Source: Parcubacteria group bacterium (GTDB taxonomy: Bacteria; Patescibacteriota; Minisyncoccia; Moranbacterales; UBA2206). From it: a DNA stretch of 64,000 nucleotides. Below are positions 2,104 to 54,694 of the stretch, one piece after another. Made by a program: the position numbers and the translations under genes. The notes under the pieces were generated by a model. That model was not told where the DNA came from. It was given only the letters and a program-made list of their open reading frames with translations, and made no database searches. Location: assembly GCA_041661275.1 (NCBI GenBank), contig JBAZUU010000001.1:165057-229056 (forward strand), written 5' to 3'. Each line of letters starts with the position of its first letter. Position 1 is the first letter of the stretch.

Positions 2104-2258
2104 CTCGTCATCTCGAGCGAATTCGACCAAAGAGAGAATGAGTCGAGAGATCTGCCCGAAGTTACCATTAGTTTTGTTTAAATAGTAAAGCCACAAGTAA
2201 CATTAAGTAGATTCCTCGACTCGCACTTCATTTCATTCGTGCTCGCTCGGAATGACGG
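2104..2258. repeat. MITE-like palindromic element, family 1 copy A
   Basis: Terminal inverted repeats cgtcatctcgagcg ... cgctcggaatgacgg. Inner inverted repeat agtcgagagatct ... agattcctcgact. Lies between yebC and ruvC. Confidence 0.7.
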
Positions 2259-8558: not shown

Positions 8559-8564
8559 TAAAAC

Positions 8565-8702
8565 CGTCATCCCGAGTGAAGGCTCAATTCTTATTGAGCC
8601 TGAGTCGAGGGATCTACTAATTGCTATTGCAAGTGCTAATATTTAGTAGATTCTTCGACTTCATTCCCCCGTCAAGACGGGGTCATTCCGCTCAGAATGA
8701 CG
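8565..8702. repeat. MITE-like palindromic element, family 1 copy B
   Basis: ccgtcatcccgagtg ... cgctcagaatgacg. Inner gagtcgagggatct ... agattcttcgact. Begins 7 bp after the PBP1A stop and supplies the first in-frame ATG (8697) of the uppP ORF. Confidence 0.75.
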
Positions 8703-9533
8703 AATGCCATTTTTATGACCTTATTCCACGCCATCATCCTCGGCCTTATCCAGGGTTTCGGAGAATTTCTCCCCATCTCTTCTTCCGGGCATCTCATTCT
8801 TGCGCCCTGGCTTTTGAATTTCCCCGATCCAGGGCTGTCCTTTGATGTGGCGTTGCATTTCGGAACATTGATTGCTGTCGTTTTATATTTTTGGAAAGAC
8901 TTTCTGGAAATAATATGCATAGCGTTTTCCTCCTCTCCCTTTGGGAGAGGATGTCGCGTCTTCGCGACAGGAGAGGGTTCAAAATATAACAAAAATATTT
9001 TCTGGCTCCTCGTCATCGCCACCATCCCCGGCGCTCTGTTCGGATTTCTTCTCGAAAGCAAAGCGGAAACAATTTTCCGAAACCCTTTGTTAATAGCAGG
9101 CACATTATCTATTGTGGGGCTAATATTATATCTAGCCGACAAATATGCTTCACATAAAAGAAATATTAACGAGCTAACAAAAAAAGATGCCACGCTTATC
9201 GGCCTCTCCCAAGCTTTCGCCATTATTCCTGGCGTTTCTCGCGCCGGCGCAACTATTACGACTGGATTATTTTTAGGCCTTGATCGCGTGTCCGCCGCCC
9301 GATTTTCATTTCTCCTTTCCGCCCCAATCATTCTTGGCGCAACCCTTGTTAAGATAAAATATATCGCTGCCGCTGGCACACTGGAAATTGTCGCCATCCT
9401 CACCGCCGCCCTCTCCGGCTACTTCGCCATCAGTTGGATGCTAAAATTCATCGAGCGTGTCAGTTACAAAGTTTTCTTTTGGTATAGATTGGCATTGGCA
9501 GTCATCATTGTCCTGGTCTGGTTTTTAAAATAA
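8697..9533 (+). CDS. uppP: undecaprenyl-diphosphate phosphatase UppP/BacA
   Basis: GFGEFLPISSSGH and PGVSRAGATITTGL are BacA signatures. An alternative start is at 8715. Contains an in-frame 51-bp repeat insert (see 8929-8979). Confidence 0.85.
   Translation: MTNAIFMTLFHAIILGLIQGFGEFLPISSSGHLILAPWLLNFPDPGLSFDVALHFGTLIAVVLYFWKDFLEIICIAFSSSPFGRGCRVFATGEGSKYNKNIFWLLVIATIPGALFGFLLESKAETIFRNPLLIAGTLSIVGLILYLADKYASHKRNINELTKKDATLIGLSQAFAIIPGVSRAGATITTGLFLGLDRVSAARFSFLLSAPIILGATLVKIKYIAAAGTLEIVAILTAALSGYFAISWMLKFIERVSYKVFFWYRLALAVIIVLVWFLK
8929..8979. repeat. family 2 multi-hairpin element inserted in-frame within uppP
   Basis: cctcctctccc-tttg-ggagagg / gtcgcg-tctt-cgcgac / aggagaggg. It is the reverse complement of 1459-1512 except for a compensatory change in the middle hairpin. 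Length 51 bp (17 codons), encoding about SSSPFGRGCRVFATGEGS in a loop where E. coli BacA is about 12 aa shorter. Confidence 0.65.
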
Positions 9534-35243: not shown

Positions 35244-37865
35244 CTATATTTGTCTTTCTTTTATGTTCGGAAAAAATGAGAGGATAAATCCGGAGAAAAA
35301 TAGCAATAGCGCTCCAGTGAGAACTATTCTGAATAAAAATGCGATATAGGTCGGGGTTGAGGAGAAAAGAGAGGCCATTATTTTGTTCTTGCCGGTCGTA
35401 TTCTTTGACACTGATGAACCGGAAAATGAATCGACAGAAGTGATGTCGATGGAATCTCCCACTTCCGTTTCATAAAATCCGCCATAATTGACGCCCCAAT
35501 AAGCGTTCAGGGCTTTTTTGGTGAGAGTATTAGGAAAATATTTGGCGGCAATTCCCACCGTCGTTGTTTCTCCAGCAACTTTGGCTGGAATAACCAGTTC
35601 GTTATTGCTGTTGATCTCATAGCCATAAGTCTTGGCGTTAGACGTATTAATGCCAACGCCATCTACTATCCAGCCATAATTTTCGCCTTCCGGAATAAAC
35701 CCGGTGAAATTGGCAGTGAGTTTGATTTTTTCTCCAGCTATTGCTTCGAAATCGTCCTTGCTGTTGTCCGGCCATTTTTTGCCGTCATAGTCAGTGTAGT
35801 ATCCCAAAAGGACGGGCTTGCAAATAGTTTCATCGGCAGTGGCTATTTTCACTTCCGGCTCGACAACCTGGAAATAGCGGGTCAGATTAACTTTTTTTCC
35901 GCTGGTTATGTCGGTGGCGGTAAGTCCGATCGTATATTGCTCACCCGGTTCATCAAGAATCGGAAAATAGGCGACATTGGTTTGTTTGGATAGGTCGCAG
36001 CCTTCAAAAAAACATGTGGAATAGCTGAATTGTTCTCCATTGATTGTCCAGGAAAAATCGGACATCCCTGCGGGCACTTTCAATCCTATAATTTGATCTT
36101 TAACAACAGGGCAGACAGATTTATCTATGCCGCTGCCGCATAATTCCGTTGAACTCATACTGACTATCGGATTTCCCGAGGCGTTATTGGCAATAGTGGT
36201 TTTATAAGCCTTTATTTTTTCCGTGGCGGAAGTGACTGGAATGACAATGTAGTTGTGTCCCTCTCTGACTGATTTTGAAGAAATATTTTCCTTGACGGTC
36301 AGTTTGACTTTCAGATAAAAAGTATCTGTGTCAGAGAAATTGAGTCGGAAATTTAAGGAATCGATGCCTATTCCAGAAGTTTGGGTGGATTCTTTAAGCC
36401 GGGCTTTAGTAATAGGGTCTCCCCAGTCGTCGGGATTAGCTTCGCTGCTTTTATATACTTGCCAGGAATAATTCAAATAACTATCGTTATTAGCGTTTAA
36501 AACAGAAGAATTTATGGTAACTTTGTCTCCATCCTGGCCATCGGTGGTTGAATCATTCATAGGAGCTTCCGGGGAACTGGACAGTTCAACCTCCATCTTT
36601 TCTTTTGTTCCACCGCCTTGCATCGGGTCAATCATATTTTCAGGAAGACACTTGTCAAGGTCGGTAACATTTTTCACATTATTAGGATAATAACTGGAGT
36701 CTATATTTTTATACACCGGAGAAGCGGTAGTGGACGATGACGTATCAGAGATGACAGTTCCGTCTGCTGTTGTAGTCACGATAGTTCTTGTTGTGGTTGT
36801 GGTTGTAGTCTTGGCGTAAAAAGCCGCTCGTTCATTCAACACTTCATTAGTGGTGACAATCACCCTGGTTGTTTGTCCGGGATCCGGCGTATCAACAGTA
36901 GGGGTGTCGCTAACCGTTTCTGTTATCGGATACTTATCAGTATAGTTCAGGTCGCAGCTATTGTTGAGTGTGGCAAACATTATTTTATATGAAGAATCAG
37001 CTTCCTGGGTAGCCTCAATGGATATCCCTTCCACCACCACTCCGATCTCATCCCCTTCTTCATAAACCCAGGAAAAACTGGTCGCTCCCAGCCCAGCCAC
37101 GTTAGCCTCGTCTCCATTCCCCGTGTCAGCTGTGTCGGGATCATTGGGATCGGTATGCCAGAATTTTTCTTCATCCTTGCCAAACGAGCCGTCTCCTGTG
37201 TCATGGGCTGTATCAGACTTTTCAGCAAAAAGATGATGGTCGCAGGTTATTGGATATTCATCTCCTGACTCTGTGTCGTGGATATAGCAAAAGTTATTTT
37301 TCCCTTTTTGATCGTTTCCTCCCCAAACGGCGCTATAACCGTCGCTGTCAGAATCCGAACCATAGTTTTCATTTTTGTATTCAAAATCATTGTTGGCGAA
37401 TATACGCGCCGCCTTTATTTTATAGTCATTAATATCAATGTCGCCATCATCATCCAGATCGCATTTGTCTTTTTGAGTATCAGAAAGTCCGCTGGATTTT
37501 TCCGGACAGCCGTCAGATTTCAGGTACCAGGTGAAATACAAATCCTTATCAGTGTTTAGGAAATACATCGGAGTGGCGACAGCCGTCACTTTCTGTCCCG
37601 GAACGGGGTTAGAAGGGTTAAAATTCAGGGAAACCTGCGGCTGCTGTTTTTTTCTCCGTTGGACGTTCATTGTCTGGATGATGTATTTCAGTTCAGTTTT
37701 GTTGACGCCCAGGTCATTCAACGCGTCATTCATAGCTCCCGTGGTAGCTGACGTAGCAATACTGCCTACTTCAACAGCCGAAGCTTGGGTATGAGGGATA
37801 AAAAGCGAAAGACACATTATCAGAGAAAAAACAGAAAAAAATATTTTTGTTATTTTATTTTTCAT
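35244..37865 (-). CDS. large (873 aa) secreted surface protein with Asp-rich Ca-binding-like repeats and a C-terminal TM anchor
   Basis: Signal peptide. DLDDDGDIDINDYK is a dockerin/EF-hand-like motif. Thr-rich stretches and a C-terminal hydrophobic anchor. Confidence 0.5.
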   Translation of the reverse strand: MKNKITKIFFSVFSLIMCLSLFIPHTQASAVEVGSIATSATTGAMNDALNDLGVNKTELKYIIQTMNVQRRKKQQPQVSLNFNPSNPVPGQKVTAVATPMYFLNTDKDLYFTWYLKSDGCPEKSSGLSDTQKDKCDLDDDGDIDINDYKIKAARIFANNDFEYKNENYGSDSDSDGYSAVWGGNDQKGKNNFCYIHDTESGDEYPITCDHHLFAEKSDTAHDTGDGSFGKDEEKFWHTDPNDPDTADTGNGDEANVAGLGATSFSWVYEEGDEIGVVVEGISIEATQEADSSYKIMFATLNNSCDLNYTDKYPITETVSDTPTVDTPDPGQTTRVIVTTNEVLNERAAFYAKTTTTTTTRTIVTTTADGTVISDTSSSTTASPVYKNIDSSYYPNNVKNVTDLDKCLPENMIDPMQGGGTKEKMEVELSSSPEAPMNDSTTDGQDGDKVTINSSVLNANNDSYLNYSWQVYKSSEANPDDWGDPITKARLKESTQTSGIGIDSLNFRLNFSDTDTFYLKVKLTVKENISSKSVREGHNYIVIPVTSATEKIKAYKTTIANNASGNPIVSMSSTELCGSGIDKSVCPVVKDQIIGLKVPAGMSDFSWTINGEQFSYSTCFFEGCDLSKQTNVAYFPILDEPGEQYTIGLTATDITSGKKVNLTRYFQVVEPEVKIATADETICKPVLLGYYTDYDGKKWPDNSKDDFEAIAGEKIKLTANFTGFIPEGENYGWIVDGVGINTSNAKTYGYEINSNNELVIPAKVAGETTTVGIAAKYFPNTLTKKALNAYWGVNYGGFYETEVGDSIDITSVDSFSGSSVSKNTTGKNKIMASLFSSTPTYIAFLFRIVLTGALLLFFSGFILSFFPNIKERQI

Positions 37866-38521
37866 TTTATCGAATGTATTAAATAGGCATCAATAATGAA
37901 GGAGGATATTAGTATAATAGCATAAGAATAGGCAATTGACCTGGTGCGCCAGGCGACAAAACCCAAAACTGTCGATAGCGCTGTGGCATAGGCGGCTTGT
38001 CCGAAACTGTTTTTATAATAAATCAGAAAAAAAAGATAGAGCAAAGATTGAATGAATATTGCCCACCAGGAAAACCTGACGGAAAAAGTGAAAAGGACGA
38101 ATCCGCGCAGAAAAAATTCAAGACAAAAAATGGAAATGTTGGCGAAAACCAGCTCATATAGGAGAAAATACCAGAAATTATCCACCACGTAGCCCGGCAG
38201 GGCGTAGGAGTTGGCAAGCGTGGTGCGGGTTATGACGAAATATGTTCCAATCGTGACGATGGCCATAGCCAAAGTTCCCCAAAACAAGCCACTTTTCACA
38301 TTTTTTACATTAAGTCCATAATCAGACAGACTTTTTTTGAGAATGAACTTTATATATGCGGCAGGGATAAGGACAAGGAAAAAAATCTGTCCGGTGAATT
38401 TTTGGCCATCGTTTCCGGCCGGGAAAACGATGAAAAGGATGGAGCAGGCGATGATCAGAAAAACACTGGTCAAAAAATGACTGTCGGAGAAAAAAATATT
38501 ATATTTTTTATTTTGAAACAT
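37862..38521 (-). CDS. polytopic membrane protein, possibly a degenerate CPBP/Abi-family protein
   Basis: LEFFLRG resembles CPBP motif 1 (EExxxR). The other motifs are not evident. Confidence 0.35.
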   Translation of the reverse strand: MFQNKKYNIFFSDSHFLTSVFLIIACSILFIVFPAGNDGQKFTGQIFFLVLIPAAYIKFILKKSLSDYGLNVKNVKSGLFWGTLAMAIVTIGTYFVITRTTLANSYALPGYVVDNFWYFLLYELVFANISIFCLEFFLRGFVLFTFSVRFSWWAIFIQSLLYLFFLIYYKNSFGQAAYATALSTVLGFVAWRTRSIAYSYAIILISSFIIDAYLIHSIK

Positions 38522-38600
38522 AGCGTATTTTGTATACTAGCTCTTAGACGTCCAACCTCTAAAGAATTAAGGCCTGTTAGAGGTTGGACGTCTAAATATT

Positions 38601-39056
38601 CTAAGCTGTTTTTTGCGCCCGGCTTCTTTCTGATTGGGTCAGTATGTATATTGTCATTACCATCATCGTTTCTATCGGAAGAATATTTACTCCAAAAATC
38701 ATTTCCGCGGTTGTGCCGATCAGTAATATTATCCAGCAAATCATTCTCGTTTTTCCTCCGAGCATCATCATCATAGCGATAAAAATCGAAATACAAATGG
38801 TAATTACTATTATGATAATATAAGTTATTATGGCGAACTCAATTAAGTCTATTAAGTCTTTGAAAATGGCGGCCATTAGAGCCAGAAGATACATCCAATC
38901 AGAAGTAAGGCTGAATCTTTTGGCCATCTTCATCATTCCCCAAGGGGTTTTTGATTGAATTATATTTTTTATATCCTTGGCGGTATTGGGAGTGCTTCGT
39001 TTTCGATCTCTGTTTCTCGCGGCTTGCAGATTTTGTTGTTTCTCGTAATCAAGCAT
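38601..39056 (-). CDS. hypothetical membrane protein in the T4SS-like operon
   Basis: 3-4 TM helices. Start taken as the ATG at 39054-39056, because the ORF-track GTG start lies inside the intercistronic repeat. Confidence 0.4.
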   Translation of the reverse strand: MLDYEKQQNLQAARNRDRKRSTPNTAKDIKNIIQSKTPWGMMKMAKRFSLTSDWMYLLALMAAIFKDLIDLIEFAIITYIIIIVITICISIFIAMMMMLGGKTRMICWIILLIGTTAEMIFGVNILPIETMMVMTIYILTQSERSRAQKTA

Positions 39057-39060
39057 AATT

Positions 39061-39179
39061 GTCTGAACCACTGATTTTCACATGAATTCACATGATTTCA
39101 CTGATTTTTATTATTAAAATTGTTGTTATTTTTTATTCATGTGTAATCAGGATAATCAGTGCGAATCAGTGGTTCAGAC
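39061..39179. repeat. intercistronic palindromic element (family 3, copy a) overlapping the virB4 TGA stop
   Basis: Arms gtctgaaccactgatt (39061-39076) and aatcagtggttcagac (39164-39179). The interior carries CACNTGATT / AATCANGTG motifs around an AT-rich centre. Confidence 0.7.
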
Positions 39180-40982
39180 TTCTTCCGCTAATTCTTTTTT
39201 GGCTGCTTCAATTTCCAGAAGTTGCGCCGGATCAGTGGTGATTATCTGATCTTCGGAATATGAAGCGATGACTTTGATAGCGACATGTTTGGTGCCGGCA
39301 AAAAATATTCCCTCTCCAACGTTACTTTCGAGAAGCAAAAATTTTTCCTGATCAGTAAGATAGAATGTTTCCGTGATGACATCAATGCCGGCCGGTGATT
39401 GTTTCAAGAGAAGCTGGAGTGATGAGTTGGTGACGATCGCTTTTCCGTAGCGTGATGATAAAAAGTCGTTGACATCCTGGGTGATGGTGGTGAGGCCGGT
39501 GTAATATTTGCGGCAGCGCTTGGCGATGCCGAAAAGAAAAGATGCCGCGTCTTCATATTTCATCATTACCCAGGCTTCATCGACCAAAACCAATCTTTTA
39601 GTAAAATTAGTGCGCATTTCGTTCCAGACGAACTGCAAAACGATATACATAGCCACCGGTCGCATCTCCTCTTCCATATCGCGCAGGTTAAAAACCATCA
39701 GCTGATTATCCACCTTGATGTTGGTGGTGTTATTGAGAAATCCGGCAAAAATTCCTTCGGTGTATTTTTCCAGGCGTATGGCCAAATTTTCTCCGCCATC
39801 CATCGACCGCAAAACTTCCCAAAGATCGGTCATAGTGGGAAATTGATCAGGGGTAAGCAAATTGAAATTGGCTTGCGGCGTGATGTCACGGACGGAATAT
39901 GTTTCACGGATAGCCCGGTCAAGGATAGAATCCTCTTCCGGGGTGATGGATCCAAGCATAATGTGGAGAAGTCCGAGAAGATGAGCGATGTTGTTTCGCA
40001 AAATATCTTCCGGATCATCATCTTCTTTCAGGCGCGGCAGATCAAACGGGTTAATGTGATTTTGGGAACTCAAAGAAATCTTGATGAATGTCCCGCCGAC
40101 CGAATCACACAAGTGCTTATATTCATTTTCCGGGTCAATAATGATGACGTTCACCCCCAGCATCAGAGAGCGCAGAGTTTCCAGTTTGATAGTATAACTT
40201 TTTCCGGCGCCGGATTTGGCAAAAACCACCATATTGGCATTTTCCAGTTGAAACCGGTCGAAGATGATGAGACTGTTGTTGTGGCGGTTGATGCCATAAA
40301 GAATCCCGCGGTTGTCAGAAAGAGTTGAGGAAACGAAAGGAAAGGTAGTGGAAAGCGGAGCGCTGTTCATCGATGTGCCGATATCCAGTTCGTCATTGGC
40401 GATAGGGAGAGAGGAAACAAATCCTTGCTCTGTCTTGAAAACAGCCGGTTTTACATATACCAATTGAGCTTCCAAAATTGCCTCGATGGATTTGGCCAGT
40501 TCCGTCACTTCTTTTTCTGTTTCCCCGTAAGCAGTGATATAGAGGCCGAAGCGGAAAAATTTTTCCGTCCCTTGTTGCAATTTATCCCGCAGCTCGTCAA
40601 TATCTTTGACGGCTGTATCCAGCGCCGGATCGCGAATCATTCCTTTTTCCTGCTCGATATGCACTTCCGATTCCACTTGCGTGGCTGTTTTTTTGAGAGT
40701 TTTCAGGATGTCATAAGTATCGATGGGATGGATAAACATGGAAATATCGATGGGCATATCGATATTGATTATCGGGGAGAACCAGGCGCTTTGCAAGTAT
40801 CTCGGATAAGCGATAACGCCGATGGTGGAAACGAAAAGCTCTCCCACGCGGATATAGCGAGGCATCACTTTTATGGCCGAAGGAGCGATGAGATCAGAAA
40901 GTCTGGCCACGCCTTCCTGGTAGTATTTCTCACTGGCGATTATCTCGTCTTCTATCTCGTTTTTTTTGGAAAATAATGACAT
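39174..40982 (-). CDS. VirB4/TrbE-family T4SS ATPase, C-terminal ATPase portion
   Basis: Walker A FAKSGAGKSY, DEAW Walker B and the TQ...NDF region. The preceding region matches the VirB4 middle domain. Confidence 0.9.
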   Translation of the reverse strand: MSLFSKKNEIEDEIIASEKYYQEGVARLSDLIAPSAIKVMPRYIRVGELFVSTIGVIAYPRYLQSAWFSPIINIDMPIDISMFIHPIDTYDILKTLKKTATQVESEVHIEQEKGMIRDPALDTAVKDIDELRDKLQQGTEKFFRFGLYITAYGETEKEVTELAKSIEAILEAQLVYVKPAVFKTEQGFVSSLPIANDELDIGTSMNSAPLSTTFPFVSSTLSDNRGILYGINRHNNSLIIFDRFQLENANMVVFAKSGAGKSYTIKLETLRSLMLGVNVIIIDPENEYKHLCDSVGGTFIKISLSSQNHINPFDLPRLKEDDDPEDILRNNIAHLLGLLHIMLGSITPEEDSILDRAIRETYSVRDITPQANFNLLTPDQFPTMTDLWEVLRSMDGGENLAIRLEKYTEGIFAGFLNNTTNIKVDNQLMVFNLRDMEEEMRPVAMYIVLQFVWNEMRTNFTKRLVLVDEAWVMMKYEDAASFLFGIAKRCRKYYTGLTTITQDVNDFLSSRYGKAIVTNSSLQLLLKQSPAGIDVITETFYLTDQEKFLLLESNVGEGIFFAGTKHVAIKVIASYSEDQIITTDPAQLLEIEAAKKELAEEV

Positions 40983-41013
40983 AATTTTTTTGAATAGTAT
41001 TCCTTAAGTAACC

Positions 41014-41151
41014 CCGTCATTCTGAGCGGAATGACCCCGCCTTGGCGGGGGAATGAAGTCGAAGAATCTGCTAAATATTAGCACCAGTGATAATATATAG
41101 TAGATCCTTCGACTACGTCCAATAAGAATTGGACTTCGCTCAGGATGACGG
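41014..41151. repeat. MITE-like palindromic element, family 1 copy C, between the two virB4 parts
   Basis: ccgtcattctgagcg ... cgctcaggatgacgg. Inner gaagtcgaagaatct ... agatccttcgact. Carries an internal ccccgcc-tt-ggcgggg hairpin. Confidence 0.75.
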
Positions 41152-41159
41152 TTGTTTTT

Positions 41160-41846
41160 TTAGCGTATTTCCATCAAACTCGAATCCTTCAATTCTATCG
41201 AATTATATATTTCCGGATTATATGAATTAAACATCAACTCAATGAGTTCCTGCGTTTTCAAGGGAGCGATGCGCAGGCCGATTCCGGCCAGGGCGGCGAT
41301 AATGTGATCCACTCTTTGGAACAGCTGACTTTTGTATGTCTCAAAATTTTCCCGCTTTTCCAGAATGTTCTTTTTCGGATTGAACATATTGAAGAGATTG
41401 GAGAAAAAACCCTTACTTTCATTCTCAATGGGAGAAAACGGAACGATGATATAGAAATTCTTGTCCATAATGTTGGTGGAAGCGATGAGTTGCCCGATGA
41501 AGTTTTTATATTCCGAGATCTGCATCCGCAAAAGTTCATTGGGCTGTTTCTTCTCGTTTTCCGTGAGGAAATTGAGATAATTTTCCATATTGAGTTTTCG
41601 GGAACTAACCAGGATTTGCAATGGAAAATCGACGGAATTGAGAAAATTCTGATATTGATTAATGATCGCTTCCTGCTCGTCGGTGGATTTCAGTTCGAAA
41701 TTGATGGAAGATACGGCCAGGACACTGCGCAACGCGCCGCTTTTGAGCATAATGACATCTTCTTTCACTTCCGCCACGTCTAAAAATTGCTGGGTAGCGG
41801 CATTGGTTGGTTTTTTGGATATTTTGTTGGAATGTAGGATTTCCAT
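41160..41846 (-). CDS. VirB4 N-terminal domain protein (split VirB4)
   Basis: FLDVAEVKEDVIMLKSGALRSVLAVSSINFELKSTDEQEAIINQYQNFLNSV matches the CagE/TrbE/VirB N-terminal domain pattern. 229 + 602 aa approximates a full-length VirB4. Confidence 0.55.
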   Translation of the reverse strand: MEILHSNKISKKPTNAATQQFLDVAEVKEDVIMLKSGALRSVLAVSSINFELKSTDEQEAIINQYQNFLNSVDFPLQILVSSRKLNMENYLNFLTENEKKQPNELLRMQISEYKNFIGQLIASTNIMDKNFYIIVPFSPIENESKGFFSNLFNMFNPKKNILEKRENFETYKSQLFQRVDHIIAALAGIGLRIAPLKTQELIELMFNSYNPEIYNSIELKDSSLMEIR

Positions 41847-41852
41847 AAAAAG

Positions 41853-41948
41853 TCTCGAACCACTGATTAGCACATGATTATCCTGATTACACTTGATTTT
41901 TAAAATTCAGTGAAATCAAGTGTAATCAGTGATAATCAGTGGTTCTGA
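41853..41948. repeat. intercistronic palindromic element (family 3, copy b)
   Basis: Arms tctcgaaccactgatt and aatcagtggttctga. The upstream gene's TGA stop (41936-41938) lies within the arm. Confidence 0.7.
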
Positions 41949-42331
41949 TTTAGTATTTTACTCAACTCTTCTATCTTATCTCCGCTTATCTTCTTCCTCT
42001 CATGTATTATAGCATTTTTGTCTTTTCCTTTTTTCGGAATCACTATTTTTTCCGGCAAGCGATGCCAGACATACATTCGCGGGCGGAAGATATAGAAGAC
42101 GGAAGACGAAAGAAAAGCAATGAGCGGTTGGCCATACGGGCGGTAAAATGCCATGGCGCTGAAAACCGCGGCGATTATGATGGCGGCGATGATGAAGCCT
42201 TGAGTATCGAGAAAATTCCAAAAAACCAGCGCCACAACGCCACCCAATCCCAACCAGCCCAGCTGTTTGGCGGTGAGTGGTCCTACTATTTTATCTTCAA
42301 TGTCTAAAAATTGTGGAACGTTAAAAAGCAT
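41936..42331 (-). CDS. VirB3/PrgI-like small membrane protein
   Basis: 132 aa with two TM helices (LGWLGLGGVVALVFWNF; FIIAAIIIAAVFSAMAF), positioned directly upstream of virB4 as virB3 usually is. Confidence 0.45.
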   Translation of the reverse strand: MLFNVPQFLDIEDKIVGPLTAKQLGWLGLGGVVALVFWNFLDTQGFIIAAIIIAAVFSAMAFYRPYGQPLIAFLSSSVFYIFRPRMYVWHRLPEKIVIPKKGKDKNAIIHERKKISGDKIEELSKILNQNH

Positions 42332-42335
42332 AGCT

Positions 42336-42496
42336 GTCCGAACCACTGATTATCACTGATTTTCCTGATGACACGTGATTAGTGTCAGTGGCATTATTTG
42401 ATTAATATTTTTTATATATTACTTTACTTCTAAACTTTTTGCTCCGAAACAAATCAGTGAAATCATTTTAATCACGTGAGAATCAGTGGTTCAGAC
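42336..42496. repeat. intercistronic palindromic element (family 3, copy c)
   Basis: Arms gtccgaaccactgatt (42336-42351) and aatcagtggttcagac (42481-42496). Interior has cacgtgatt, cactgatt and aatcagtg motifs. The upstream TGA stop at 42491-42493 is in the arm. Confidence 0.7.
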
Positions 42497-43792
42497 ATCC
42501 TTGAGATTTACCACATTCCTCGGCAACTCTTCTTTTCCATCATCATATGGCGTGGCCGGAGCGATGTGCAACGGCTGCGGCTCGATCGGCGCTTGTGGTC
42601 TTTCGGGGACAAACGGTTTCGGCGGCGCTGGTTGCATTTGCGGTCTGACAGGAGCCGGCGGAGTCACGGGAGCTGGTGGAGAAAATTTTTGTTCTTTTTC
42701 TTTCTCAAACGGCAACTTTTGCGGGGAGGAAAAAACTAACTGACTGGTTTTGGATTGCTCAACTGGTTTGAACTCCGGAGAACCGAATCTCACTTCTCTT
42801 ATATTTTGGGAAGCATCTTGCCTGTGTTCAATATCTGATTCTTCCGGCTTTTGGGGAATATGATAGTGTTCGTAATTTTTTTCCAGATTATTTTGCGGCG
42901 CTTGTTTCTCAGGAGAAAACTGTGGCCGTATCGGCGCTCCAGCGGATTGGATATTATCGAAATTATAAACAGGCCTGCTTACCTGCCTGCCGGCAGGCAT
43001 GGCTTCTTGCTTCATACTTTCTTGTTTAGCCATTGCCGGAAAAACTATCTGTTTTTTTGTTGTGTCGATTGTTACCGGCGTTTTCTCATCGTATGATTTC
43101 AGGATATATGACAACTTATTCCTGTCTTCCGCGGACAATCTTTTGGCGTTTTCGTTCTGAAACATATAGTTCCCGCGAGTGATGGTGTCATGGGATTCAT
43201 AACCGACGCTATACGTATAATCCGAAACCCAGTTTTTGATTGTCGGACGAACCGGTTCTTGCCCTCCTCGTATTTTTATCGATTCGGACGTGACAAATTG
43301 ATCGGCAACAGTCGGGTATTTCGCCAGGGCGTCGGGCAGGGAAATTTTCGTCAGTTGCGCCTGGTAGGCTTTTTCCAGGCTGTCATCGTTGATAATTTTT
43401 TGGATAACTATTTGAGAAATTTCCTTGGCGGTGTTGAGATCTACGCCCATTTCTTTGTACAGGATTGACGGAAAATCTTCCAAATGAATCTCGCCGAAAT
43501 AATAACTGCGGATAGCGCGAGAAATGTCGGCTAGTTGCAGGAGTTGTAAATTGTATGTTTTTCCGATTTCTTGGATTTTATTGCTAGTTTCTTGAGAAAC
43601 AAGCTTATCTTTGATATTTTCAGGCAATGTTAAAAATTTTTCTTGTCTTTTTTCTACATCCCCATCGCGTTCATCTACTAGATTTTTTGTTACTGAAACT
43701 GCTTGGGGTACAGTAAATTGGCGAAGTTTTATTTTTTCTAAAACATCTGGCTTCACATATTTCAATACTTGAGGAGAATAATCTTGTAGCAT
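42491..43792 (-). CDS. hypothetical protein with a Pro-rich C-terminus (433 aa)
   Basis: No TM segment or signal peptide. The C-terminal PPAPVTPPAPVRPQ region is low-complexity. Confidence 0.4.
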   Translation of the reverse strand: MLQDYSPQVLKYVKPDVLEKIKLRQFTVPQAVSVTKNLVDERDGDVEKRQEKFLTLPENIKDKLVSQETSNKIQEIGKTYNLQLLQLADISRAIRSYYFGEIHLEDFPSILYKEMGVDLNTAKEISQIVIQKIINDDSLEKAYQAQLTKISLPDALAKYPTVADQFVTSESIKIRGGQEPVRPTIKNWVSDYTYSVGYESHDTITRGNYMFQNENAKRLSAEDRNKLSYILKSYDEKTPVTIDTTKKQIVFPAMAKQESMKQEAMPAGRQVSRPVYNFDNIQSAGAPIRPQFSPEKQAPQNNLEKNYEHYHIPQKPEESDIEHRQDASQNIREVRFGSPEFKPVEQSKTSQLVFSSPQKLPFEKEKEQKFSPPAPVTPPAPVRPQMQPAPPKPFVPERPQAPIEPQPLHIAPATPYDDGKEELPRNVVNLKDV

Positions 43793-43834
43793 ATTTTTTA
43801 ACTGATAATTTTTTAAACTAGTATAATGGAAGTA

Positions 43835-45847
43835 CTAAATAGGAACCCCAAGATTTCTTAATGCCTTAACATTAGCAGAGCTTAACCGCTTACTTAGTTC
43901 ACCTTGAGCTTGCGGTTTTAGGCTAATATACGAATCCAATAATGCAGCTGATAGCTTTGCCCTGTTTGGCCCTGTTAGTTTTTTATCAACAACTGCCCAG
44001 TTTTGATCTCCCCATTTTTCAGCTGTCATTTTACCCATTTCATCTTCGATTACTTGATATTTAATCATGTCGGGTGTCCATAATGGATTTGCTGTTTTAA
44101 TATCTTGATATTCTTTAGAATTAATATCCTCTGCTTTACTGATAGCAACAACATCAGTTCTGTTTTGTTTGACCTTGGCATCAAGTGCGCTCTTGATACG
44201 TGTTGACCCCTTTGTATTTCTAAGAAATTCGTTATAAACATCACTATCCATTTCTTTCAAATCGGCTAAGGCATAGGCGGCTGCGGCATCACCCTTTTTC
44301 GCAAGATCCTGAAGCTCAGGTAATGACTTCTCTTTTTTATATTCATCCGCTTGTTTTTTCATATCTCTTTCTTCAGCGCTTTTGGAGCCTAATGCAGTAG
44401 CCATTCTTGCTTCTCTGCTCTCTCTACTAGATTTAAACTTATTTTTAATTTCGCCATACCGCTGTTGTACTCCTCCAGGAATTCCAGTTGCCTTAAATCC
44501 CATCCAGGGTGCTTTATATGTTCCCCTGCCGACCCACTTCATAAATTTTTCTCCTCTTCCCACAATCGCCCCAGCGCCAGCGATACTCATTTTTTGTGCC
44601 GAGCCGATGCCGACCCATAAAATGACGATCGGGATAGAGAAAAAAGCGAAGGCGGCAATAGTCTTAGCAATCTCCGGTTGCGTTTGCGCTGTGGCTATTA
44701 TGCTCATCTGTCCTTTCTTCTTAGCAATTTCCCCCATCATCTTCGTAGCAACAACCATCATGAAAATCATAACCGGGCCAAAGAATGCGTATTTGAAAAG
44801 GGTGTCCCACCACTCACTGGCGTATTTAGAAAGGAAAGGAACGATTGATCCGACAAAAGCAATAGAAGCAAAAATTATAAGAATTGCCAAAACTACTATT
44901 CTAATAAGAAGCAAAATGGCGATAATAATCAGGGTTACCATAAACATGAAGGTAAAAACAATAGCAGCTATAAGAAAGCTCATATCCGAATTTACACTCA
45001 CAGACCCACCAACCTTAGGGTTAACAATATCGGCTAATCCCCCATTATTTGCAAAATCTATAAAAATTTTTCCGTCTTTAATATTGGATCCCAAGCCATT
45101 TATCAGGTAATACATTATAACATTGGAAAAGTCTATAATAACTCGGGCAATGGGAAAACTAAAATTGACCAAAAGAGCCATTATGATAAGAGTCACTAGC
45201 AGACTTTTGTAGCTATATTTTGAAATTTGAAAAACGGTGCAGAAGGCGGAGAAAAGAAGAACGAGAATGAAGGCTACGTTTAACATATCTCGGACAAAGC
45301 CCCATAATTCATATATAACAGAGTTATCCAAAACTGCTTTCATATTGGCCGTATCAATAACCCATACAAAAAGAGTGCTAGCGGCTACTATAAGAGCACC
45401 AATAAATTTCAGAACGTAAAGCAATAAGCATTTTATCCCCTTAAGCGAAAGGACAGCATCGAGCAAACCTATTCCACAAACATCTTCAGTTTTTTGACCC
45501 ACTCCTATTGTGCCTTCAGAATTTTTATCAAGTGTTGCTTGTGTTCCTGATTTCAATTCGTCTGCCTTTGCTTTATCCTCCGTGTATCCTACGAAAATTG
45601 AATCACCGCCTCCGCTAGCGCTAGAAGTTGTGAGTGTTTTTTTACACGCACTCTCGCTGTCTGACGTAAAATAATCTACTTCTGCAGAAAGCCCTCCCGT
45701 GTTATTTGTCTGATGGACGCAATATCCTGCTCTTGCTTTTTCCACTTTCCCCAATCCAAAACCAGCCACAATAAATACTGCGAGAAACATATAAAATACG
45801 ATTTTATTTTTCGTGTTTGTTTTCATTGTCTGGATTACCGAAAACAA
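43835..45847 (-). CDS. VirB6/TrbL-like polytopic membrane protein with a C-terminal hydrophilic domain
   Basis: Signal peptide, a 130-aa exodomain, at least 7 TM helices, and a 270-aa charged C-terminal domain. Confidence 0.55.
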   Translation of the reverse strand: MFSVIQTMKTNTKNKIVFYMFLAVFIVAGFGLGKVEKARAGYCVHQTNNTGGLSAEVDYFTSDSESACKKTLTTSSASGGGDSIFVGYTEDKAKADELKSGTQATLDKNSEGTIGVGQKTEDVCGIGLLDAVLSLKGIKCLLLYVLKFIGALIVAASTLFVWVIDTANMKAVLDNSVIYELWGFVRDMLNVAFILVLLFSAFCTVFQISKYSYKSLLVTLIIMALLVNFSFPIARVIIDFSNVIMYYLINGLGSNIKDGKIFIDFANNGGLADIVNPKVGGSVSVNSDMSFLIAAIVFTFMFMVTLIIIAILLLIRIVVLAILIIFASIAFVGSIVPFLSKYASEWWDTLFKYAFFGPVMIFMMVVATKMMGEIAKKKGQMSIIATAQTQPEIAKTIAAFAFFSIPIVILWVGIGSAQKMSIAGAGAIVGRGEKFMKWVGRGTYKAPWMGFKATGIPGGVQQRYGEIKNKFKSSRESREARMATALGSKSAEERDMKKQADEYKKEKSLPELQDLAKKGDAAAAYALADLKEMDSDVYNEFLRNTKGSTRIKSALDAKVKQNRTDVVAISKAEDINSKEYQDIKTANPLWTPDMIKYQVIEDEMGKMTAEKWGDQNWAVVDKKLTGPNRAKLSAALLDSYISLKPQAQGELSKRLSSANVKALRNLGVPI

Positions 45848-45941
45848 TTTTTAATTTGAAATTTTTAATTTTTAATCAATTTGTAATTTGGAAATTTTTA
45901 AATTTAAAATTCAATAAAAATTTCGAATTAAAAACTAAAAA
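45848..45941. repeat. AT-rich AATTTTTAATT-type repeat tract
   Basis: tttttaatttgaaatttttaatttttaat... Same motif family as 2790-2927. Confidence 0.45.
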
Positions 45942-46313
45942 TTATTTATTCTTATCTTTATTTTCCATTGTATTGATAATTTTGGAAAAAATCATTGCCA
46001 ATTCCTGCGATTCTCTCCATAATTCTCTACATTTCACTTTATGTTCCGGAGCTGCTTTGGCTAAAACTTGCAGCCAATACATACTTTCCTTAGTCTCTTT
46101 CTTGCATATATGAATTTTATTTTTAAAATCTTTTCTTGAACTGGCTCCATTTGCCTCACAGTAGTTGGCGCCGATACTAGTAATGGATCTTATTAATTGA
46201 CCGATAATAGGAATGGTAATTATATCTTTTTTAATATTCCTCAAAAACTCTATTGTATTTTCGCTAAGCTTTGTTGTTCTTTCTTCTAGATTATACTTTT
46301 CAGATTTACTCAT
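45942..46313 (-). CDS. four-helix-bundle protein of the 23S rRNA IVS / Avd-like family
   Basis: 123 aa. IGQLIRSITSIGANYCEANGASSRKDFKNKIHICKKETKESMYWLQVL resembles PF05635/TIGR02436. Confidence 0.65.
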   Translation of the reverse strand: MSKSEKYNLEERTTKLSENTIEFLRNIKKDIITIPIIGQLIRSITSIGANYCEANGASSRKDFKNKIHICKKETKESMYWLQVLAKAAPEHKVKCRELWRESQELAMIFSKIINTMENKDKNK

Positions 46314-46359
46314 TTAAAATTCTGTCATTTAAAATTTATTAAAAATTTCAAATTAAAAA
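46314..46359. repeat. AT-rich AATTAAAAATT-type repeat tract
   Basis: aaatttattaaaaatttcaaattaaaaattaaaaatt. Confidence 0.45.
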
Positions 46360-50451: not shown

Positions 50452-50813
50452 ATAAAGATTTGAAGCTCATAATTATAACCGGCATATATTATCCCGCTGC
50501 CGTTTTGTCTCTTTGGATATTCTGGAAAGAATCTATGATGTTGACATTGATTTTGTTTATCCTAGCTATTATCGAGCTTATCGCCGCCAAGAGTCGCAAG
50601 CTCATGATTCTTTTTCTCCTCGGTTGCGTGGTCGGACCCGTAGTCGAGTCCGTAGCGATATGGCGGGGAAGTTGGAGCTATAGTTTGCCGGAGATATATA
50701 ACATTCCGTTGTGGCTGATTCCGGCTTGGGGGAATGTCACTATTTTTGTTGTTACATTCTACAAATTTCTTGGTCGTTTTAGTTGGTTAGAAAAGAAAGC
50801 CGATTCAGAATAA
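50448..50813 (+). CDS. small membrane protein, translationally coupled to the UbiA-like gene
   Basis: 4-bp overlap. 3-4 TM helices. Confidence 0.4.
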   Translation: MNKDLKLIIITGIYYPAAVLSLWIFWKESMMLTLILFILAIIELIAAKSRKLMILFLLGCVVGPVVESVAIWRGSWSYSLPEIYNIPLWLIPAWGNVTIFVVTFYKFLGRFSWLEKKADSE

Positions 50814-51713
50814 TGAGCTCAATTTTTTCCAATTTTCTATTGTCAACTCTTGCGCGCGGCAAGTCGGATTGATTCCGGCTTTTTTAATTTTTTCTTCAGT
50901 TTCACTTTTCCCTAGATGAAAACTAGAGGATAAATTATTAAGCAAAGTTTTTCTCTTTGAAGAAAAACCGGCCTTAACTATCCGAAAAAACTTTTTATTT
51001 TCCTCCTGACTTACTTCTTTCTTCTTACTTCTTACTTCTATTCTTATGACCGCGCTATCCACTTCCGGCACCGGCCAGAAGGCCTTTTTATCCACATAAA
51101 ACAGTAGTTTCACATCGGCATAATATTGCACGCTAACCGCCAAAATACTCATCTGTCCGGGACTGGCTACGATACGTTCGGCCACTTCTTTTTGCACCAT
51201 CAAGATCATTTCGGTTGGTGGATATTTAGTTTCCAAAAAAAGTTGAATGATGGGTGAGGTAATATAATATGGAATATTAGCAATGACCTTGTAATCATAG
51301 TCCGTCATCCCGAGCGAAGTGAGGATTTTATCCGAACGCAGTCGAGGGATCTGCCCTTGATTATTGCTGGTAGTATTATTTAGTAGATTCTTCGACTCCA
51401 TTCCGCCTACGGCGTCATTCCGCTCAGAATGACGGAGCATTTCCGGCAAATTTACTTTCAAAATATCATCATTAATAATCTTCACTTTGTCATTCCCGCG
51501 GAAGCGGGAATCCAGTTTCGTAGCTAAATTTTTATCAATCTCAATGGCCAATACTTTTCCGGCGTGCTTAACTAGTTCTTCTGTTAGCACTCCTTCTCCT
51601 GACCCGATTTCCACCACAAAATCATCCGTGCTCAAATTAGCAGACTCAATAATTCTTTCCAGCACGGCTTTATCCTTCAGAAAGTTTTGTCCGAGTGATT
51701 TTTTTGGTTTCAT
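50805..51713 (-). CDS. rsmA: 16S rRNA (adenine1518/1519-N6)-dimethyltransferase KsgA/RsmA carrying an in-frame MITE insertion
   Basis: KKSLGQNFL, EIGSGEG and NIPYYITSP are KsgA motifs. About 45 extra codons, RHSERNDAVGGMESKNLLNNTTSNNQGQIPRLRSDKILTSLGMT, sit just before the NIPY motif and are encoded by repeat D. Confidence 0.8.
   Translation of the reverse strand: MKPKKSLGQNFLKDKAVLERIIESANLSTDDFVVEIGSGEGVLTEELVKHAGKVLAIEIDKNLATKLDSRFRGNDKVKIINDDILKVNLPEMLRHSERNDAVGGMESKNLLNNTTSNNQGQIPRLRSDKILTSLGMTDYDYKVIANIPYYITSPIIQLFLETKYPPTEMILMVQKEVAERIVASPGQMSILAVSVQYYADVKLLFYVDKKAFWPVPEVDSAVIRIEVRSKKKEVSQEENKKFFRIVKAGFSSKRKTLLNNLSSSFHLGKSETEEKIKKAGINPTCRAQELTIENWKKLSSLF
51302..51435. repeat. MITE-like palindromic element, family 1 copy D, inside the ksgA coding sequence
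   Basis: ccgtcatcccgagcg ... cgctcagaatgacgg. Inner gcagtcgagggatct ... agattcttcgact. Read in-frame on the minus strand with no stop codon. Confidence 0.8.
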
Positions 51714-51780
51714 AAATTTATTGTCTAATAAAAAAGCGGAGGGAAACCCAGCGCCGCCTTTTTTAAATTCTAAAACAAAT

Positions 51781-52392
51781 TTAAGTCGTGCTGTATTTAG
51801 CCAATTCTTTTTTGATGGTCTTTTCATCCACTTCAAAGCCGGGCAAAAATTCAACTTTTTCCAAGTAGCTTACATCTTTAAAGTAGGATAATTGTGTCCG
51901 GAATATTTTTTCGTTGAAATGTGATCCAAAAAGCGCTCTTGCTTTTTTTATGATGCCATCTATTCCATGATATTTTTCCATAATAAAATACAGATCGACA
52001 TAATCCTTCCATTTAGCTCGCTGACCAAGAGCAAAGGCTTTCATAGCGGCCAAAGTCAGAAGATCAACAGTGCGGATCAAATCCTTAAATTTTTTATCAA
52101 ATTCCAGTTTATATGGAAATTGATAGAAAGTAACCTTCACATTATTTATCAAGAAAGTAAATTCTCCCTCTTTATTCACAATAATTTCCTGAATAGGTTT
52201 ATATTTGGAAATTTTTCTGATCAGATTTGTGTTATTAAATTTTTTGTGAGTAAATAAATCAAAATCAATCGATCTTCTATGACCAATATGAAGAGCTATA
52301 GCTGTTCCTCCCACTAACCCGAAGCTTCGGGAAAAACTTCTAATAAGCGGAGCCAATTCTAGCTGTTCTTTTGTTAAAATTTCATTGTGCAT
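51781..52392 (-). CDS. AbiEii-like (DUF1814) nucleotidyltransferase
   Basis: The GGTAIALHIGHRRSIDFDLF motif. Confidence 0.6.
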   Translation of the reverse strand: MHNEILTKEQLELAPLIRSFSRSFGLVGGTAIALHIGHRRSIDFDLFTHKKFNNTNLIRKISKYKPIQEIIVNKEGEFTFLINNVKVTFYQFPYKLEFDKKFKDLIRTVDLLTLAAMKAFALGQRAKWKDYVDLYFIMEKYHGIDGIIKKARALFGSHFNEKIFRTQLSYFKDVSYLEKVEFLPGFEVDEKTIKKELAKYSTT

Positions 52393-54534: not shown

Positions 54535-54694
54535 CCGTCATCCTGAGCTCGACCCTGAGTGAGCGTAGCGAGTCGAAGGGGAAGAGCGAAGGATCTATAA
54601 ACGATTACCAGAAGTTATATTTATATGGCAAAACTTGTGGTTATAATTAGCAGATCCTTCGCGTCGGTTTTACGACCGACGCTCAGGATGACGG
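54535..54694. repeat. MITE-like palindromic element, family 1 copy E
   Basis: ccgtcatcctgagc ... gctcaggatgacgg. Inner cgagtcgaagg...gaaggatct ... agatccttcgcg. Lies between the comM stop and the next gene's start. Confidence 0.75.

Follow-up and report, generated by a model that had tools for sequence, protein, structure and literature searches.

A palindromic repeat between trsD and virB4 of a patescibacterial T4SS is probably a late occupant of an old intergenic gap

In the window, by which we mean the whole stretch of 64,000 nt that was analysed, two ORFs with likeness to VirB4 lie one behind the other, downstream of a gene of the PrgI family (Table 1). The ORF list has both of them at the positions given in the first-pass annotation; they lie on the minus strand, and every gene from 35244 to 45847 has the same orientation. 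The PrgI family gene stands two genes upstream of virB4, an order that is shared by relatives and by Firmicutes plasmids. The gap that follows trsD is 177 bp long and comprises an 8-nt spacer, a copy of a 138-bp palindromic repeat and a 31-nt spacer before virB4. The repeat makes up 138 of the 177 bp, and the first-pass observation of two ORFs with a repeat between them was correct. Within the 31-nt spacer, AAGGA is found ~21 nt ahead of the ATG of virB4. The 602-aa product of virB4 is 100% identical to the deposited protein P0271. For the 228-aa ORF, a longer reading from a GTG at 41873, which lies inside a palindrome, was rejected because the homologues are 228 aa at 100% coverage.

Table 1. 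Genes, spacers and repeat copies of the window that are discussed in the text.
Feature	Position	Strand	Remarks
trsD-like gene, 228 aa	41160..41846	-	In the ORF list, starts with ATG; separately encoded homologue of the ~200 N-terminal residues of single-chain VirB4
virB4 (trsE-like) gene, 602 aa	39174..40982	-	Distal half of the N-terminal domain and P-loop ATPase domain
prgI / virB3-like gene	41936..42346	-	Directly upstream of trsD; Pfam PrgI 2.6e-10, 41.1 bits (cut-off 27)
31-nt spacer, virB4 translation-initiation region	40983..41013	-	Adjoins the virB4 ATG; beyond the inverted ends of the 138-bp repeat
138-bp palindromic repeat copy, ends CCGTCATCCTGAGCG / CGCTCAGAATGACGG	41014..41151	.	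In the trsD-virB4 spacer; aligned with the four other copies of the window
GTCAT...ATGAC repeat copy	8564..8703	+	Intergenic, with a PBP-like gene on one side and a uppP-like gene on the other
GTCAT...ATGAC repeat copy	51302..51435	+	In frame within the rsmA/ksgA coding sequence
GTCAT...ATGAC repeat, more divergent copy	2105..2258	+	
GTCAT...ATGAC repeat, more divergent copy	54535..54694	+	Intergenic
Second repeat family, inverted pair of GAACCACTGATT-type arms	41847..41935	-	Fills the prgI-trsD spacer; hairpin of -40.7 kcal/mol, z=-7.4
Second repeat family (GAACCACTGATT-type)	39072..39173	-	Fills the gap from virB4 to the following gene (156 aa); predicted hairpin at -40.5 kcal/mol, z=-6.6

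The 602-aa protein has the ATPase domain of VirB4. Its Pfam matches are P-loop_TraG (2.5e-28, 99.3 bits), AAA_10 (43.2 bits), DUF87, CagE_TrbE_VirB and TraC_F_IV, and it matches the structure of the VirB4 C-terminal domain (PDB 4ag5) at 2e-51 as well as residues 293-735 of TrwK. The match to 4ag5 places the beginning of the ATPase domain at about residue 219, and both of the motifs expected of a VirB4 ATPase are present, with Walker A (AKSGAGKS) at residue 255 and Walker B (LVLVDE) at residue 464. The N-terminal domain is represented on this polypeptide by its distal half only, of which positions 63-197 of the 204 of CagE_TrbE_VirB (21.4 bits, cut-off 21) and 292-374 of the 375 of TraC_F_IV are kept. 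In BLASTP, residues 17-564 align to residues 202-755 of a fused VirB4 of 783 aa (2e-72). The break had been thought to fall exactly between the N-domain and the ATPase parts; it is actually located at about residue 200 of a VirB4 of ~800 aa, inside the N-terminal domain.

In a local Pfam scan with E up to 10, the 228-aa ORF had no significant match, the best being TraC_F_IV at E=0.06, and a phmmer search against the PDB sequences gave zero matches. Taken alone, the Pfam scan would have pointed wrongly to no relation of this ORF to VirB4. By BLASTP, residues 29-170 of the 228-aa protein align to residues 35-184 of the 783-aa VirB4 of Clostridium perfringens (E=5e-10). A profile made from 46 homologues matches residues ~17-199 of the fused VirB4, and the same profile matches the trsD frame of an S. 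aureus pGO1-type plasmid, which is 222 codons long and immediately precedes trsE (E=1.1e-9, small search space). When the AlphaFold model of the protein was compared with the PDB by Foldseek, the top 14 matches were all TrwK/VirB4 (probability 0.90-0.99), with low TM-scores of ~0.3. Precomputed PF26593 (TraC-like) domains are on record for homologues that are 70-94% identical; the local scan returned no match to PF26593, the model of which is possibly missing from that copy. In the literature, a remote homology of TrsD to the N-terminal part of VirB4 has been described (PMC12102498). Although the local Pfam and PDB sequence searches could be taken to mean that the 228-aa ORF is a mere neighbour unrelated to VirB4, and that there is hence no split VirB4, the BLASTP alignment in the correct order, the profile and fold matches, the precomputed family and the literature together leave this practically no credence. 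Judged by its sequence, the 228-aa protein is a TrsD homologue, the counterpart of about the first 200 residues of single-chain monoderm VirB4, and its VirB4 N-terminal likeness had been correctly recognised at first pass. The two proteins are collinear with the single chain of 783 aa from C. perfringens, over residues ~17-199 and then 202-755, which confirms that the two ORFs jointly approximate a canonical VirB4, as was first proposed.

The terminal motif of the repeat in the gap, GTCATYCTGAGCG, has 12 matches with up to two mismatches in the 64-kb window, compared with 1.7 expected, and 10 of the 12 pair as five inverted pairs that represent five copies of the repeat. The repeat is small and non-coding, has inverted ends of 15 nt and is present in five copies in 64 kb, all of which are features of MITE-type elements. 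The label 'MITE' used in the first-pass annotation is thus borne out by the inverted ends and the multiple copies but not by a target-site duplication, of which there is none at the five copies of the window, including the one between trsD and virB4 for which such a check had been proposed. Around 123 related elements from metagenomes, direct duplications are no more frequent than expected by chance. As RNA, the repeat is predicted to fold into a 14-bp outer stem and three hairpins (-71.3 kcal/mol, z=-10.6). All five copies retain the outer and the central stem, with 8 pairs changed on both sides. The copy in rsmA is translated as ~46 extra residues of RsmA, which are located between the residues aligning to positions 113 and 122 of B. 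subtilis KsgA. Rfam has no family at gathering threshold over the whole window, with chance-level matches only in the gap, and a literature search on the terminal repeat strings gave only unrelated primer matches. Metagenome contigs in which repeats of this class occur span 36-75% GC. In its exact form the terminal motif is found in only 1 of 89 related loci (L069), so the sequence family is lineage-specific among T4SS relatives. The class may merit separate study: it is widespread, makes no target-site duplication and is found in frame within a gene.

The arrangement of trsD and virB4 as two genes is uniform among relatives. The 120 best homologues of the 228-aa protein, which carry the precomputed PF26593 domain, are all 220-244 aa long, and those of the 602-aa protein, again the 120 best, are all 587-628 aa. 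Even among the 150 best representatives of 50%-identity clusters of the 228-aa protein, with identities of 35-53% save for three short partial ones of up to 62%, none is longer than 443 aa. The homologues found are annotated as Moranbacteria, Patescibacteria or Parcubacteria. The comparison with related virB4 loci that the first-pass annotation had called for gave a clear answer: in 80 of the 80 loci with both genes (41-76% identity), the stop codon of trsD is followed by the ATPase gene on the same strand. In these loci the gap between the two genes has a median of 58 nt and extremes of -17 and 863 nt; in about 29 of them it does not exceed 12 nt. The idea that the long gaps of relatives are all repeats was dropped, as many of them (L013, L015, L017, L018, L021, L025, L028 and L033) look by eye like proline-rich coding extensions. 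The repeat is polymorphic for presence and absence among close relatives. In a relative with 90% identity the same split is found with a gap of 102 nt and no copy of the 138-bp repeat, while a relative with 94% identity has a gap of 87 nt that holds a shorter, different repeat variant, and relatives with 76% identity have a third variant. Firmicutes plasmids show both states, being split in Pontibacillus and in the S. aureus pGO1-type plasmids and fused in C. perfringens.

That the repeat was inserted into a single ancestral virB4 and gave rise to the two ORFs had been considered at first pass. The size of the repeat relative to the gap and the collinearity of the joined ORFs with single-chain VirB4 would fit this reading. 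It is refuted by the very test that had been named for it, because relatives without the repeat have the same two genes: every relative examined shows the same split and the same protein lengths, including the 90%-identical one, about 29 lineages are split with hardly any gap, the split extends to Firmicutes plasmids and to the literature (PMC12102498), and the repeat has no target-site duplication. We therefore consider an origin of the split by insertion of the repeat to be extremely improbable. The other possibility raised at first pass, insertion of the element into an intergenic gap that was already there, is supported by the presence of the split in relatives that lack the repeat.

Could the repeat have been recruited at this position, either as a promoter or expression signal for virB4 or as a structured RNA that sets the ratio of TrsD to VirB4 by processing, by acting as a stability barrier or by uncoupling translation? 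Promoter-like hexamers (TGGACG and TATATT, 18 nt apart, 9 of 12 matches) aimed at virB4 are found inside the repeat, its predicted structure is very stable, and hairpin repeats, related or not, are found in the same gap of the loci L086, L003/L004, L001, L005, L006, L020, L042, L044, L055 and L069. However, 13 promoter-like sites were found against 7.5 +/- 2.7 in shuffled sequences, a difference of about two standard deviations, and all listed sites are weak matches to the consensus. Almost no gap is left between the genes in about 29 of the 80 loci. The occupancy of the gap looks generic because hairpin repeats also fill other intergenic gaps of the genome and one copy is inside rsmA. Nor is there support for the suggestion that the repeat supplies the translation-initiation signals of virB4, since the ATG and the 31 nt before it are outside the element and virB4 starts at the same position in relatives without it. 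Taken together, these observations make a recruited function of the repeat very unlikely. Since the 94%- and the 76%-identical relatives have related palindromic elements in this gap, and further lineages have hairpin repeats of their own there, it is conceivable that a structure at the trsD-virB4 gap may have a selected role. A broader proposal would be that this spacer repeatedly recruits structurally convergent hairpin elements, here the cross-phylum GTCAT...ATGAC repeat, which uncouple or tune the expression of the two halves of VirB4, and that the repeat class, given its lack of target-site duplication, its in-frame copy in rsmA and its wide GC range, is maybe a mobile palindromic element of an undescribed type; we regard this proposal as unlikely.

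We argue that the two ORFs are the normal TrsD and VirB4 pair of the patescibacterial T4SS, and that the repeat came later, as a passenger, into an old intergenic gap and did not cause the split, a reading to which we give a probability of about 0.9. The genes prgI (virB3-like), trsD and virB4, in this order, would form part of the conserved core of the patescibacterial (Moranbacteria-like) T4SS, and VirB4 in this lineage would be made from two genes, as in pGO1-type staphylococcal plasmids. The fission is probably ancient and older than the diversification of the sampled Patescibacteria, with the 138-bp repeat as a much later, lineage-specific occupant of the existing trsD-virB4 spacer. The repeat would then have neither broken virB4 nor provided its start codon or ribosome-binding region. 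A promoter and terminator scan revealed no terminator-like site in the trsD-virB4 gap. The trsD and virB4 genes are likely co-transcribed, and their mRNA would therefore contain the repeat as a very stable structure, which may at most modulate processing, stability or translational coupling and is probably dispensable. The two-gene arrangement of TrsD and VirB4 in Patescibacteria is already known: a survey counted 2,272 patescibacterial homologues of TrsD, of which 1,664 adjoin virB4, and TrsD is essential in Ca. Southlakia epibionticum ML1 (PMC12102498); the words 'split' and 'two genes' are absent from the text of that paper. Such loci should be annotated as TrsD and VirB4, and should not be listed as pseudogenes or as genes that a mobile element has broken up. 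From one close relative to the next, the spacers of this essential operon change fast and its coding sequences remain intact, with at least two families of palindromic repeats gained and lost in the spacers.

Short, non-coding, multi-copy palindromes with a stable fold are known as REP/BIME, as Correia elements of Neisseria and as Rickettsia palindromic elements (RPE). The 138-bp repeat resembles them in being short, non-coding and multi-copy, with inverted ends and a stable fold, and in lying between co-directional genes; the likeness is one of family properties. Correia elements carry a TA duplication, whereas the 138-bp repeat has neither this nor any other duplication. Residence in frame inside protein-coding genes is the hallmark of RPE, and the copy in rsmA shares it.

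Among secretion systems, the single-chain monoderm VirB4 of the CD1110 family on the C. perfringens plasmid NZ_CP143494 is collinear over its full length with the joined proteins of the window, and a PrgI gene is upstream in both; it is one polypeptide of 783 aa, whereas the window encodes two, of 228 and 602 aa. The TrsD-TrsE pair of the S. aureus pGO1/pSK41-type plasmids (MPF_FATA, pGO1 subclass) is arranged as in the window, with a small VirB4-N-like protein encoded immediately upstream of a shortened VirB4 ATPase and after a VirB3-like gene, although the sequence identity is very low. The staphylococcal trs genes belong to a plasmid conjugation apparatus, while those of the window are chromosomal in a patescibacterium, and the staphylococcal trsD frame ends 14 nt before trsE without a palindromic repeat, where the pair of the window is separated by one. 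With the patescibacterial T4SS described previously (PMC12102498, Microb Genom 2025), the window has in common the same gene set of VirB4, TrsD and PrgI/VirB3 and the same adjacency of TrsD and virB4, without an essential difference.

The two ORFs and the repeat-filled gap between them are present exactly as the first-pass annotation described them (see table). Of the 177 bp in the gap, 138 bp are a palindromic repeat with GTCAT...ATGAC ends; 8 nt lie on its trsD side, and 31 nt lead from it to the virB4 ATG. A GTG at 41873, inside a palindrome, would lengthen the 228-aa ORF but finds no support in homologues, which are 228 aa long with 100% of the query aligned.

Features of the T4SS region and repeat copies in the window
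Feature	Position	Strand or size	Remark
trsD-like ORF, 228 aa	41846 (ATG) to 41160	minus	ORF
virB4 ORF, 602 aa	40982 to 39174	minus	ORF
GTCAT...ATGAC repeat copy	41014-41151	138 bp	in trsD-virB4 gap
GTCAT...ATGAC repeat copy	2105-2258		inverted pair of terminal motif
GTCAT...ATGAC repeat copy	8564-8703		inverted pair of terminal motif
GTCAT...ATGAC repeat copy	51302-51435		inverted pair of terminal motif
GTCAT...ATGAC repeat copy	54535-54694		inverted pair of terminal motif
Second palindromic family	39065-39175, 41857-41945, 42340-42492		three inverted pairs
Third repeat family, AT-rich, AAATTTTAAATT-type	2808-2917, 45846-45955, 46313-46376		direct and inverted copies

By its sequence, the 602-aa protein is a VirB4-type ATPase. 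It matches the Pfam model P-loop_TraG at 2.5e-28, together with AAA_10 and DUF87, and has AKSGAGKS at residue 255 as its Walker A motif and LVLVDE at residue 464 as a Walker B-like motif. From residue 219 on, it matches the solved VirB4 C-terminal domain (4ag5) at 2e-51; a further match is to TrwK residues 293-735. Of the N-terminal-domain models only the distal parts are covered (CagE_TrbE_VirB 63-197/204; TraC_F_IV 292-374/375). The 228-aa protein has no significant match in the local Pfam copy or among PDB sequences; PF26593 'TraC-like' is the precomputed domain on its homologues. A Clostridium perfringens plasmid, found by a tblastn search of plasmids, encodes a single-chain 783-aa VirB4 of the CD1110 family, and a PrgI gene lies immediately upstream of it. 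BLASTP aligns residues 29-170 of the 228-aa protein with residues 35-184 of this fused protein (E=5e-10), and residues 17-564 of the 602-aa protein with its residues 202-755 (E=2e-72). A profile built from 46 family members of the 228-aa protein spans residues 17-199 of the fused protein. It also matches, at E=1e-9, the frame that immediately precedes trsE in a Staphylococcus aureus plasmid of the pGO1 type and, at E=3e-50, a stand-alone Pontibacillus gene located upstream of virB4. The 14 best PDB matches of its AlphaFold model (mean pLDDT 75.8) are TrwK/VirB4 chains, with probabilities of 0.90-0.99 and low TM-scores. These BLASTP, profile and model matches therefore establish that the two ORFs are collinear halves of one VirB4. 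The proposal that the break separates the N-domain from the ATPase holds in that the ORFs together make up a VirB4, but the break falls near residue 200, inside the N-terminal domain rather than at a domain boundary.

That the repeat split an ancestral single virB4 is refuted by relatives that have the same two genes without it, which is the observation that the first-pass annotation had itself named as refuting. The 120 best homologues of the 228-aa protein (70-94% identity) are all 220-244 aa long, and those of the 602-aa protein (120 best, 78-100% identity) all 587-628 aa. None of the best 150 cluster representatives of the smaller protein exceeds 443 aa; they are 35-53% identical to it, bar three short partials (up to 62%). 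Both genes were sought in 80 loci fetched from species-representative genomes, labelled Moranbacteria, Uhrbacteria, Falkowbacteria, Magasanikbacteria, Buchananbacteria, Komeilibacteria and others, and in four earlier loci from close relatives. Both were present in 80 loci (78 genome loci and the earlier loci L003 and L004), where virB4 is split without exception: a stop codon closes the small gene, the ATPase gene comes next in the same orientation, and no fused trsD-virB4 occurs. The gaps are estimated at -17 to 863 nt (median 58 nt; ≤12 nt in 29 loci), with start codons chosen heuristically and stop codons not. The closest relatives are decisive against the repeat having caused the split. 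In a 90%-identical relative (L001/L085), the same two genes lie 102 nt apart, and this gap holds a different palindrome and no GTCAT...ATGAC copy. In a 94%-identical relative (L086) the gap measures 87 nt and contains a far shorter variant, whose resemblance is limited to the end motifs, the rest being quite different. A third repeat variant occupies the 178-nt gap of two 76%-identical relatives. Among close relatives, then, the gap has had its content exchanged wholesale, with no shift in the stop and start positions of the two genes. The alternative that the repeat landed in a pre-existing intergenic gap is supported.

The two-gene VirB4 is already known, because exactly this trsD and virB4 arrangement has been described (Microbial Genomics 2025, PMC12102498); the locus in the window is an ordinary member. 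According to that study, TrsD is a remote homologue of the N-terminal part of VirB4, is the most abundant T4SS component found in Patescibacteria (2,272 homologues, 1,664 associated with virB4), is given as essential in Ca. Southlakia epibionticum ML1, and is known outside Patescibacteria only in the pGO1 subclass of monoderm systems.

Other content was seen in this operon in further loci. In eight of them (L013, L015, L017, L018, L021, L025, L028 and L033) the long 'gap' between trsD and the conserved virB4 start is GC-rich and open in frame, and looks like a proline-rich VirB4 N-terminal extension rather than non-coding DNA. In L029 (5712-6162) the trsD-virB4 gap contains an ORF, with inverted repeats on either side, which, judged by eye, looks like a four-helix-bundle protein of the 23S rRNA IVS type. 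A PDDEXK_3 gene lies between a 419-aa gene and prgI in L001 (5006-5392). Such small genes in the T4SS operons of other Patescibacteria are selfish-looking.

Could the repeat nevertheless act on virB4 expression? It does not supply the translation-initiation signals once suggested for it, because the virB4 ATG and the preceding 31 nt lie outside the repeat and relatives without it use the same start. One promoter-like hexamer pair (9/12 matches) within the repeat faces virB4; the region holds 13 promoter-like sites against 7.5 ± 2.7 in shuffled sequence, an excess of only about two standard deviations, and all those listed are weak consensus matches. The same scan found no terminator-like site in the gap. 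Since the genes from 35244 to 45847 all lie on one strand, they are likely co-transcribed, and the repeat would then sit within a polycistronic mRNA as a very stable structure, which could alter how the transcript is processed, change its stability, or uncouple trsD translation from virB4 translation. A selected role for a hairpin here would fit the unrelated hairpin repeats that seven other loci (L005, L006, L020, L042, L044, L055 and L069) carry in the same gap, but has a small probability. Such hairpins are better explained by generic colonisation of tolerant sites: almost no gap is present in about half of the lineages, further spacers of this genome are filled by hairpin repeats too, and one copy lies within rsmA.

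Two further repeat families were observed in the window. GAACCACTGATT occurs exactly six times (0.32 expected), within the T4SS cluster only, as three inverted pairs, each enclosing an intergenic spacer in full. The left arm runs into the stop codon of the gene before the spacer, and 8-10 nt separate the end of the right arm from the ATG of the gene after it. For the two pairs folded at full length the hairpins are stable (z=-7.4 and -6.6); the third, folded only in truncated form, is weak (z=-2.4). A palindrome of this family fills the trsD-virB4 gap of the 90%-identical relative instead of the GTCAT repeat; the 94%-identical relative has just 2 nt between prgI and trsD. One pair of the AAATTTTAAATT-type repeats borders the T4SS cluster at its upstream end.

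The mildly novel part is the GTCAT...ATGAC repeat class, which is outside the original claim. The family is real: its terminal motif has 12 matches (≤2 mismatches) in the window against 1.7 expected, of which 10 form five inverted pairs, giving five copies. The 138-bp copy has 15-nt inverted ends (CCGTCATCCTGAGCG / CGCTCAGAATGACGG) and folds as a single strand into a 14-bp outer stem around three hairpins, at -71.3 kcal/mol compared with -34.2 ± 3.5 for shuffles (z=-10.6). The outer stem is kept in all five copies, as is the long central one (AGTCGARGGATCT ... AGATYCTTCGACT), and eight stem pairs are changed on both sides across them. No Rfam family matches the 138-bp repeat. A metagenome search for the two ends, correctly spaced, returned at least 120 stretches in contigs of 36-75% GC, so the class is widespread and not specific to Patescibacteria. 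Many of these elements have tandem extra terminal motifs (e.g. contigs L090, L140, L161 and L153), and their variable internal hairpins differ in sequence with self-complementarity kept. The target-site duplication sought at the copy in the virB4 gap did not emerge, flanking direct duplications being not above chance at the window copies or at 123 metagenome copies. The element fits the description of a REP/RPE-like palindromic repeat better than that of a classical MITE.

Two other copies overlap ORFs. The right inverted end of the copy at 8564-8703 contains the first ATG (8697) of a uppP-like ORF (cagaATGacg), and the in-frame ATG at 8715 is more likely its true start. The copy at 51302-51435 lies in frame within rsmA/ksgA (16S rRNA dimethyladenosine transferase; ORF 50805..51854, minus strand) and is read through as ∼46 extra residues, LRHSERNDAVGG...LGMTD, placed between residues aligning to B. 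subtilis KsgA 113 and 122. In this it is similar to Rickettsia palindromic elements that are inserted in frame.
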